A stretch of DNA of 16,973 nucleotides from a virus (lineage: Duplodnaviria; Heunggongvirae; Uroviricota; Caudoviricetes). Below the pieces are notes generated by a model that saw nothing but the letters and a program-made list of their open reading frames with translations, was not told the DNA's origin and did no database searches. Each line of letters starts with the position of its first letter. Position 1 is the stretch's first letter. The translations under genes were made by a program, and so were the position numbers. Positions 368 to 2,412 of this stretch are shown here, in pieces. Location of the stretch: positions 1 to 16,973 of IMG/VR virus record IMGVR_UViG_2529293240_000008; one strand, given 5' to 3'.

Positions 368-1150
368 CTTCAAAATGATGGACATTATTTTTGTGGAACC
401 GGAGGTAACAGACCAGACGGTTTAAATGAGCCGGTTACTTTAAACGGGTGATGGACAGCACCTCAAAAGTTCAGATGGATTATATTTGTCTGCAATACCC
501 CGGGTATTTTCGATTTGCGAAATGGATGGAACGACTTGCTCAGGGGATAGCTGATGGAGTTACTGAAGTACCGAAGGACCACTAAAAATCACAGGCCGGG
601 AATTTCGGCGTTTCCGGCGTAGGTGTGCCACGAATGCATCCAGTGGCGTGATGTTGGATGCAATGCTGTATGAGAGATGAGGGGCGGCGTCCAGACGCAG
701 CCTTCAAACCGCCTTGAGCTGCTGCCGTTAAGAGCGGTGGTGGTGAGCGTCAAGGTTAAAAGGCGCAGAACATGTGTCAGGTAGGTGTTGCGGAGATGAA
801 CGAAAGTGAACTGTCGATGAAGTGTCGAAAGGAACCTCTAGGCGATGTCGAAAATGTGCTATCTACGCAGCGCATGACGAGTCCAGCAGATATCTGGTAC
901 TGGCTGGGCGGCATCCGGCATATAGGCAGCATGAACGCAACACAGGCTCTCGTACGGAACGTGGGAACCTGTCGTCTCGATGCTAAGGGAGCGGCGCGGA
1001 GCAGAGGCACTGCAAGCGCCTGAGTACCGATGCGAGACACAGGGGCAGATGGCTTCGTAGTAGTGAGGAAGTGCCTGTAATGGGCATGGAGCGAAGGGGG
1101 TCAGTCGTTGGGGCTGGTTTATCGGTCAACCGGATAGCCGGGAGGAGCCC

Positions 1151-1440
1151 ATGAGTCAGCCAAAGCCGTTCGAGGTCTCTAAGTATGCGGTTTGGAAAGC
1201 ATACCAGCGGGTCAAAGCTAATCGAGGTGCGGCAGGTGTCGATGGGCAGTCAGTCGAGGCGTTTGAGGTTACCAATCGAAGCTATACCCGGTAATGGCGC
1301 AGGTTGACCTGCACTTGGCCAAGTGGATTGCCCGCAAACACAAGCGAGCGCGAGGTAGTCTGGTGCGTGCATTCGAGTGGTTACTGCGAATTCGTCACGA
1401 CTGCCCGACGCTGTTTGCACACTGGTGCTTAGCTTACGAT
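1151..1440 (+). pseudogene. Group II intron reverse transcriptase/maturase remnant
   Basis: ATG at 1151 preceded by GGAGGAG encodes MSQPKPFEVSKYAVWKAYQRVKANRGAAGVDGQSVEAFE..., a typical group II RT N-terminus, then stops after 47 codons. A C-terminal-like tail (...LAKWIARKHKRARGSLVRAFEWLLRIRHDCPTLFAHW...) follows in another frame, so roughly 1.3 kb of RT core is missing. Confidence 0.5.
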
Positions 1441-1460
1441 ACTTGAATGGTTCAACGACA

Positions 1461-1494
1461 AGAGCCGTATGACGCGAGAGTGTCACGTACGGTT
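1461..1494 (+). ncRNA. Group II intron domain V catalytic hairpin
   Basis: GAGCCGTATGACGCGAGAGTGTCACGTACGGTTC: 34 nt, 10-bp helix with AGC triad and G-U wobbles matching the domain V consensus GAGCCGUAUG...CGUACGGUUC. Confidence 0.6.
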
Positions 1495-1608
1495 CCGTGG
1501 GAGCGTAGGGGGGCGGTGCCCCTGCGCCACCCGATATCCCCTTTGAGTGCGGTTACGTCCACAGAGGTAAATGCCGCTGACGCGGCATCTGTAATCTGTT
1601 ACTTTGTG

Positions 1609-1672: not shown

Positions 1673-2412
<740 letters not shown>

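Follow-up and report, generated by a model that had tools for sequence, protein, structure and literature searches.

A decayed group II intron, assigned to class D, within the terminal inverted repeat of a Tn3-family remnant on Shigella plasmid pINV

Location and limits of the intron

A group II intron remnant of 913 nt was analysed in a stretch of 16,973 nt deposited as virus record IMGVR_UViG_2529293240_000008 of IMG/VR (the window; positions are counted from its first letter, and features are on the + strand unless stated otherwise). The remnant occupies 623–1535, runs from GUGUG to AU and was delimited from Rfam matches, relatives and an empty copy of its target site. In agreement with the original prediction, which had been made from the sequence alone, it lies between an IS66 terminus and a toxin-antitoxin (TA) operon. 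The IS66-family element, annotated as ISSfl4 ORF3 in pCP301, contributes its 3′ end (1–368). Its transposase C-terminus stops at 335 (Pfam DDE_Tnp_IS66 and IS66_C on 18–332), and inspection of the sequence puts the end of the terminal repeat, ...GGGGCGCTTAC, near 368. The operon (1673–2412) encodes a TacA-like antitoxin and a GNAT toxin (Pfam matches TacA1 and GNAT), and we take it to be GmvAT, the acetyltransferase-type TA system of the Shigella virulence plasmid pINV (PMC6519299).

Positions 560–1620 match Shigella boydii plasmid NZ_CP026837 at 100% identity; at 99.9% they match plasmids of enteroinvasive E. coli (EIEC) and, from S. flexneri, the virulence plasmids pCP301 and pWR501/pWR100. 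This complete stretch is unbroken in 73 plasmid records. The annotation around the intron is pINV-like (ISSfl4, IS600, ospD3, ospC1). A phage collection searched with the intron stretch gave no match, and the element is confined to plasmids and chromosomes. Each plasmid carries one copy, with no proliferation seen, and the sequence is 99.8–100% conserved across many pINV plasmids; on some EIEC plasmids the copy is 5′-truncated at window position 958 and the downstream region is retained. None of the public records examined annotates an intron here. They list a 54-aa 'hypothetical protein' on the − strand (589–753) that spans the 5′ splice site, and some RefSeq records place an 'arylsulfatase' label on the area; both labels are probably spurious.

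The intron begins with GTGTG at 623–627 and ends with ...ACCCGAT at 1535. Both boundaries are kept in 10 relatives and agree with the consensus GUGYG/AY. An earlier span of 623–1545 was thus correct at the 5′ end and 10 nt too long at the 3′ end: the Rfam match RF00029 and the alignment of the relatives both stop at 1535, and the next 6 nt are those of the empty site. In the pattern search, the 5′ end of locus L010 (Photorhabdus) and locus L094 (S. marcescens) gave an odd boundary or none.

The 5′ splice site was also assessed from the pairing of the intron with its exon. The final 6 nt of the 5′ exon, GCGTAG at 617–622, form intron-binding site 1 (IBS1) and are the perfect complement of exon-binding site 1 (EBS1), CTACGC at 864–869, which occupies the terminal loop of the helix 854–859/870–875. 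In relatives inserted elsewhere EBS1 covaries with the last 6–8 exon nucleotides. The EBS1 and IBS1 sequences are GCGAAC and GTTCGC in Ralstonia (L006), CACCACC and GGTGGTG in L015, TTACGGG and CCCGTAA in L061, and GGTGGTGG and CCACCGCC in L063. This covariation across insertion sites is independent evidence that places the 5′ splice site. A candidate EBS2, GGAACC at 831–836 in an unpaired stretch of the Id arm, complements GGTTCC in the 5′ exons of close relatives, and its putative partner in the window is GTTTCC at 610–615. Covariation support for this second pairing was not found in Ralstonia or in more distant copies. The exon junction that splicing would produce reads ...TTTCCGGCGTAG^ATCCCCTTTGAG (...GGCGTAG^ATCCCC...; here and below the caret marks the insertion point).

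Domain architecture, deletions and classification

Two Rfam models match within 623–1535. Group-II-D1D4-2 (RF01999) matches 669–782 with 81.8 bits (E=1.8e-15, curated thresholds), and Intron_gpII (RF00029, domains V–VI) matches 1460–1535 with 57.8 bits against a gathering score of 40 (E=2.6e-9), the alignment spanning model positions 1–77 of 77 with zero non-standard pairs. Domains I–VI are recognisable, and the earlier description of a group II intron with an internally deleted reverse transcriptase (RT) held up in this covariance-model check. A consensus fold was obtained with RNAalifold from the 5′ 540 nt of the window copy and 22 relatives (23 sequences), whose proteins are 56–100% identical to one another. 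The fold of domains I–III contains 134 pairs, 94 of which show compensatory double changes. Paired cells amounted to 97.3%, against 38–46% when the partners were slid by 1–3 columns, and the observed values were reached in 0 of 500 shuffles.

Mapped to the window, the domain I core covers 666–957 and is closed by a basal helix (666–676/947–957). It contains a hairpin at 682–705 (loop CCAG), helices at 712–755 and 764–776, and the Id arm at 785–943. Both sides of the α-α′ interaction (CCAG at 691–694, CUGG at 894–897) are invariant and hence silent for or against pairing. Domains II (965–1046) and III (1050–1103) show compensatory changes in the consensus fold, and every pair is intact in the window. 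Domain IV (1104–1458, read from the sequence) is collapsed by a deletion. Inspection gave a putative 7-bp basal helix, GTCGTTG at 1104–1110 with CAACGAC at 1452–1458, which by its position between domains III and V would form the base of the domain. The 5′ part of domain IV is kept, with the Shine-Dalgarno sequence GGAGG (1141–1145) and an ATG at 1151. Domain V is a 34-nt hairpin at 1462–1495 with its AGC triad at 1463–1465; RF00029 and two models for domain V only match it, and all pairs are standard. The hairpin had been recognised as retained and placed one base off, at 1461–1494. In domain VI (1499–1532 in the RF00029 alignment) the A at 1529 is a candidate branch point and lies 6 nt from the 3′ end; the helix, bulge and branch nucleotide of this domain, as read from the sequence, are likely.

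The size of the losses was determined by alignment to a sister copy on a plasmid of Escherichia sp. 10290 (L004), which is 1875 nt long and 94–97% identical over the shared parts. Two deletions, of 948 and 14 nt, cover the entire length gap of 962 nt (1875 − 913). The larger one has its junction at 1268/1269 (BLAST places L004 position 3661 at window 1268 and 4610 at window 1269), which gives the deletion in the RT gene a definite size. It takes residues ∼40–354 of the intron-encoded protein (IEP), that is, the whole RT domain and most of the maturase domain. Since the intact Serratia IEP (420 aa) carries RVT_1 at 68–288 and GIIM at 314–382 (Pfam), essentially all enzymatic sequence is lost from the window copy. 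A base-by-base walk found no microhomology at the junction that would point to a mechanism.

On either side of the junction stumps of the RT/maturase gene remain. The N-terminal stump, MSQPKPFEVSKYAVWKAYQRVKANRGAAGVDGQSVEAFE at 1151–1267, comprises codons 1–39 and is 39/39 identical to the open reading frame (ORF) of L004 and 31/39 to the Ralstonia IEP. The RT ORF was correctly described as starting normally and stopping after 47 codons (1151–1294), but only codons 1–39 are authentic; the last 8 are out of frame past the junction. The C-terminal-like tail that had been noticed in another frame is genuine: the last 58 IEP codons lie in their true frame at 1270–1446, end with ...LLRIRHDCPTLFAHWCLAYDT followed by the stop, and equal residues ∼355–412 of the relatives. 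The tail ORF called at 1294–1446 reads ...LAKWIARKHKRARGSLVRAFEWLLRIRHDCPTLFAHWCLAYDT and includes ...PTLFAHW. In L004 the ORF is itself frameshifted, giving pieces of 303 and 162 aa. The C-terminal part is in the +2 frame in both copies, and two-event scenarios fit either order of frameshift and deletion. Among the copies seen of this very intron, none is intact.

Taken alone, the ORF fragments of 47 and 50 aa gave no Pfam match, as might be expected if the RT stump came from a retron, a diversity-generating retroelement (DGR) or an Abi-type RT and the hairpin at 1462–1495 were coincidental. We regard such an origin as most improbable: full-length relatives of both fragments carry RVT_1 plus GIIM and are flanked by the same ribozyme, the Rfam models match domain I and domains V–VI, and the 5′ 540 nt fold as covariation-supported domains I–III. 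A retron or DGR assignment of the N-terminal peptide was rejected, the relatives being annotated as ltrA with RVT_1 and GIIM domains.

The smaller deletion lies in domain I, at 683–688, where a single GGCGGC copy is left in an alignment with 22 other sequences, L004 included. The 14 missing nucleotides, GGCGGCCCCTCGGA, comprise a hairpin with a 5-bp stem and a 5-nt loop (GAGGG-NNGGC-CCCUC), together with 3 nt from the helix that follows. Counted from the domain I basal helix this hairpin comes first, and it is present and near-invariant in 22 of the 22 other sequences. In L004 the segment lost from the window is bracketed by GGCGGC direct repeats, which suggests that replication slippage between them made the deletion. 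In the window 126 of the 134 consensus pairs are standard, and the 8 failures all stem from these 14 nt. The ribozyme shell of the original prediction is nearly, not completely, intact, the missing domain I hairpin having been overlooked.

Intact ltrA genes of the relatives encode proteins of 412–420 aa with RVT_1 and GIIM only and no endonuclease domain (Pfam), and multi-copy ltrA genes of Sinorhizobium share 58% identity with the Serratia IEP (WP_052447675). The C-terminal motif of class D, LX3AX3PXLF[V/A]HW (PMC4615759), is present in the window tail LLRIRHDCPTLFAHW save that the conserved A is R (Q or R across the sub-lineage). The size and domains of the IEP, the near-complete motif, the Sinorhizobium identity and an existing catalogue entry point to bacterial class D (IIB3, RmInt1-type, endonuclease-less). 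In that catalogue (Leclercq & Cordaux 2012; PMC3522654, Tables S2/S3) the entry S.b.F2 is a class D fragment of 116 bp at NC_004851 90922–91037, 76% identical to Ce.ja.I1 and present on pINV in S. flexneri 301 and in two strains of S. boydii. Its locus is the one studied here and corresponds to window ∼1405–1520. There it was listed as a fragment with its homing site unknown; here it is an intron of 913 nt with both ends, sized deletions and a named target.

RmInt1 of Sinorhizobium meliloti is a class D/IIB3 intron with an endonuclease-less IEP of 419 aa and a target spanning −20 to +5 (PMC4615759). The present lineage resembles it in the size of the IEP (∼412–420 aa), in having RT and maturase domains only, in the C-terminal ...PxLF[V/A]HW and in target recognition by EBS1/2/3. 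It belongs to another sub-lineage, however, with R/Q for the A of the RmInt1 motif and a Tn3-family repeat as target instead of the ISRm2011-2 transposase gene, and the window copy is naturally ORF-deleted and lacks one domain I hairpin.

The interrupted Tn3-family repeat

The sequence interrupted by the intron had been called unclear; the IS66 and TA context was right, and the host could be resolved as a Tn3-family terminal inverted repeat. The 5′ exon (438–622) is the surviving inner part of a Tn3-family end, is shared with L004 and is 95% identical over 185 nt to E. coli plasmid p100 (L003); the terminal inverted repeat contributes its inner part as the last 32 nt (591–622). The 3′ exon (1536–1541) holds the outer 6 nt, ATCCCC in the window and AACCCC in the relatives and the empty site; on the other strand AACCCC is the repeat tip GGGGTT. 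The exon junctions follow from the uninterrupted homologue on p100, where ...CGGAAATTTCGGCGGTTCCGGCGTAG^AACCCC (also given as GGGGTTCTACGCCGGAACC...) carries no intron. On the other strand this empty site reads GGGGTTCTACGCCGGAACCGCCGAAATTTCCG..., the form of a 38-bp Tn3-family terminal inverted repeat, which the intron splits between positions 6 and 7 (GGGGTT^CTACGCC...).

Both ends were seen in Serratia. On S. symbiotica pSsAf2.3-2 the stop of an annotated Tn3-family transposase is followed after 26 bp by an intact relative of the intron and then by AACCCC, with a matching repeat, GGGGTGCTACGCCGGAACCCCAG..., inverted on the far side of tnpR-tnpA. The Serratia sequence (L007) shows an intact left-end repeat, GGGGTGCTACGCCGGAACC..., left of tnpR/tnpA and an intron-split right end, GGGGTT^CTACGCCGGAACC..., at a distance of 26 bp from the tnpA stop. 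A repeat of ∼38 bp starting with GGGG is thus found inverted at both ends of a tnpA unit (with or without tnpR) in Serratia. In Yokenella a C-terminal tnpA fragment (67% identical) ends ∼50 bp upstream of the intron, and the window keeps only one truncated Tn3-family end (438–622 plus 1536–1541).

The position between nucleotides 6 and 7 is used in all ten occupied ends in nine loci: in the window, in L004, and in Serratia (two species, three plasmids), Yokenella, Enterobacter, Arsenophonus and Xenorhabdus budapestensis. The reconstituted site is GGGGTT^CTA(C/A)GC(C/G)GGAA..., with GTAAGC in Yokenella and CGGGTT^CTATGC... on a second Serratia plasmid. On S. symbiotica pSsAf2.3-1 (L093 2409–6326), included in this count, both ends of a 192-bp segment are occupied by outward-facing, identical intron copies of 1863 nt; bounded by the inner halves of Tn3-type repeats, the segment would be a miniature Tn3-derived element. 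Past the six tip bases the flanks differ at every locus, and such a loss of similarity is expected at a transposon boundary. Empty target sites are common on E. coli plasmids: matches were obtained in 194 E. coli records, of which only 3 have a place where the query is covered to at least 80%, and among the matches listed the low-coverage ones cover only the 63 nt of 5′ flank.

Targeting of the ends of transposable elements has a precedent in RmInt2 of S. meliloti, a class D intron that homes into the inverted repeats of ISRm17 (PMC4615759). Terminal inverted repeats serve as the homing site in both cases, so that both ends are targetable (compare the mini-element on pSsAf2.3-1), but the host of RmInt2 is an insertion sequence and not a Tn3-family transposon. 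The short target of RmInt1 would likewise fit within the 38-bp repeat. The introns described here may form a previously undescribed class D sub-lineage in Enterobacterales, possibly also in Ralstonia, that homes to Tn3-family repeats between positions 6 and 7, reads outward and rides on Tn3-type elements while disabling the end it invades; we put this forward tentatively, at slightly less than even odds. No report of group II introns in Tn3-family repeats was found in a literature search that left most subscription journals outside its reach, which is weak evidence. The homing specificity is the single point that we consider modestly new.

Several side observations concern these ends. The 69 bp between the IS66-family end and the Tn3-type similarity (369–437) match none of the compared loci. 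TA pairs stand within a few hundred bases of intron-bearing Tn3-type ends in several unrelated loci, some inside the Tn3-type repeat and some outside: RelE/HigA in L004 (4952–5523) and L002 (4344–4915), a TA-like pair of a RelE/ParE toxin and an adjacent hypothetical gene in L088 (3556–4289), and TacA/GNAT in the window (1673–2412). This proximity may reflect the known association of TA systems with Tn3-family elements, or chance.

Maturase supply, transcription and fate of the remnant

Both splice sites, EBS1/IBS1, most of domain I, domains II and III, the base and 5′ part of domain IV, and domains V and VI are left in the window copy. No protein is made, and without one the remnant has no autonomous mobility. 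Splicing would require both a compatible maturase acting in trans and tolerance of the domain I lesion. Derivatives of RmInt1 that lack the ORF (ΔORF) do function with the IEP in trans (PMC4615759), and it was considered whether the window copy might be a still-functional ORF-less intron, comparable to natural ORF-less introns and to the engineered RmInt1 ΔORF donors, which is spliced from read-through transcripts by the maturase of another class D intron. Consistent with this, 126 of 126 pairs outside the small deletion are intact, as are EBS1/IBS1, domains V and VI, the candidate branch A and both splice-site consensuses; the part of domain IV with the ribosome-binding site and start region, the usual anchoring site of the IEP, is kept as well. 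Some related class D IEPs also cross-complement (PMC4615759), and an intact IEP of ∼70% identity occurs on some E. coli chromosomes. On the other hand, a hairpin near-invariant in 22 relatives is deleted, each plasmid holds one copy without proliferation, the only other class-D-like RT on the plasmid is broken, and no sense-strand transcription start site (TSS) feeds the intron. The exons are non-coding transposon debris and exert no selection for splicing. Overall, continued function in this form appears unlikely.

A search that extended to the plasmid and not to Shigella chromosomes gave no intact cognate maturase. The broken class-D-like RT/maturase on the S. boydii plasmid (NZ_CP026837.1 44069–45281) is in three pieces, is 63% identical to the Serratia protein and may correspond to the remnant derived from E.c.I3 in the catalogue of Leclercq & Cordaux. 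The chromosomal gene is an intact ltrA of 413 aa in E. coli 2009C-3133 (L095 1–3126) and at least 8 other E. coli genomes, with ∼70% identity to the Serratia and Ralstonia IEPs. The ribozyme of its intron is split by an IS3-family insertion, and its domains V–VI are 88% identical to those of the window.

Transcription was assessed from published differential RNA sequencing of S. flexneri M90T/pWR100 (PMC7132871 Table S3; window position = record position − 3612). No sense start is listed from the IS66 element to 1628, the TSS of gmvA, which lies 93 nt downstream of the intron 3′ end. Antisense TSSs are listed inside the intron at 936, 1096 and 1497 (− strand), flagged as novel transcripts. A sigma-70 promoter scan of 300–1750 gave 0 matches and was uninformative. 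Directly upstream of the antitoxin gene, around TSS 1628, a near-perfect palindrome, ATATCATTTGCT...AGCAAATGATAT (1611–1665), is probably the operator of the GmvAT operon.

The three antisense starts, together with the 99.8–100% conservation across many pINV plasmids of a sequence 93 nt upstream of the gmvA TSS, could be taken to mean that the relic has been co-opted, either as a source of antisense or small RNA or as a structured spacer that insulates or modulates gmvAT. We hold this to be very unlikely. The pINV plasmids share a recent ancestor, which accounts for the conservation; a separate TSS and an operator-like palindrome serve gmvAT downstream of the intron; EIEC copies truncated at 958 still keep the downstream region; and plasmid DNA of AT/GC-mosaic composition commonly shows pervasive antisense TSSs.

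We conclude, with a probability of roughly 85%, that the element is a decayed class D group II intron on Shigella pINV and an immobile relic. Its identity, limits, losses, exon pairing and target are demonstrated by the data, and the course of events given next is a proposal. An ancestral copy of ∼1.87 kb would have retrohomed into a Tn3-family terminal inverted repeat on an F-type plasmid, recognising the target through EBS/IBS pairing (IBS2 GGTTCC, IBS1 GCGTAG, IBS3 A) and inserting between nucleotides 6 and 7 of the repeat with its reading direction pointing out of the transposon. After that, in the lineage of pINV, the RT/maturase gene would have lost 948 bp and domain I 14 nt, and an IS66-family insertion (ISSfl4), which truncates the Tn3-family remnant upstream of the intron, would have cut the host transposon back to 185 bp. 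The remnant is most likely inert and carried passively by the plasmid.

Several observations weigh against this conclusion. Outside the deletions the RNA is clean (no broken pairs, perfect EBS1/IBS1, intact domains V and VI), a state also compatible with recent activity or with continued splicing in trans; the importance given to the lost hairpin derives from its conservation only; a potential source of maturase exists in the intact ltrA of E. coli chromosomes; and read-through from the upstream IS66 element could still transcribe the intron. In addition, the 5-bp target duplication of Tn3-type elements was not found at these ends, where the flanking bases differ in Serratia (TCCTA and TAAAT) and at the mini-element (ATTAT and TACAT); either these ends have undergone rearrangement or they never moved as one unit.

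Natural ORF-less bacterial group II introns, ribozymes that lack a functional IEP gene and use a maturase in trans, were reportedly described by Simon and colleagues in 2008. The window copy shares with them the lack of a functional IEP gene and the dependence on a maturase in trans. They are typically multi-copy beside ORF-containing relatives, whereas the window copy is single, with ORF stumps, a ribozyme lesion and no partner found.

Away from the intron, two further features of the window deserve mention. Two tandem units of an isrK-like small RNA and a C4 antisense RNA, an immunity RNA pair of the phage P1/P7 type, lie 656 bp apart at 8293–8481 and 8949–9137 (Rfam scores of 62 and 80 bits each). 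They are opposite a coding sequence annotated as 'IS91 family transposase' (8342–9550, −), and either the annotation or the RNA matches need explaining. A cluster of four tRNA genes (Met-CAT, Arg-TCT, Thr-TGT and Gly-TCC; 14279–14589), between ospC1 and an IS5-family element, looks phage-derived on this virulence plasmid.

As a finding the remnant is ordinary and partly catalogued already; it is dead mobile DNA on a plasmid rich in insertion sequences, of little import by itself, and its proper annotation is that of a group II intron remnant. The catalogue entry S.b.F2 is corrected to an end-to-end, ORF-deleted intron of 913 nt with a defined homing site, and this correction matters wherever models of intron extinction dynamics tally fragments against full-length copies or count free homing sites. 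If the proposed specificity is true, an intron between positions 6 and 7 parts the transposase-binding repeat from the cleaved tip, and the parasite would immobilise its own vehicle. Confirmed targeting would make this a clear case of one mobile element inactivating another, and would provide a natural programmable ribozyme scaffold aimed at a sequence common to many resistance transposons.

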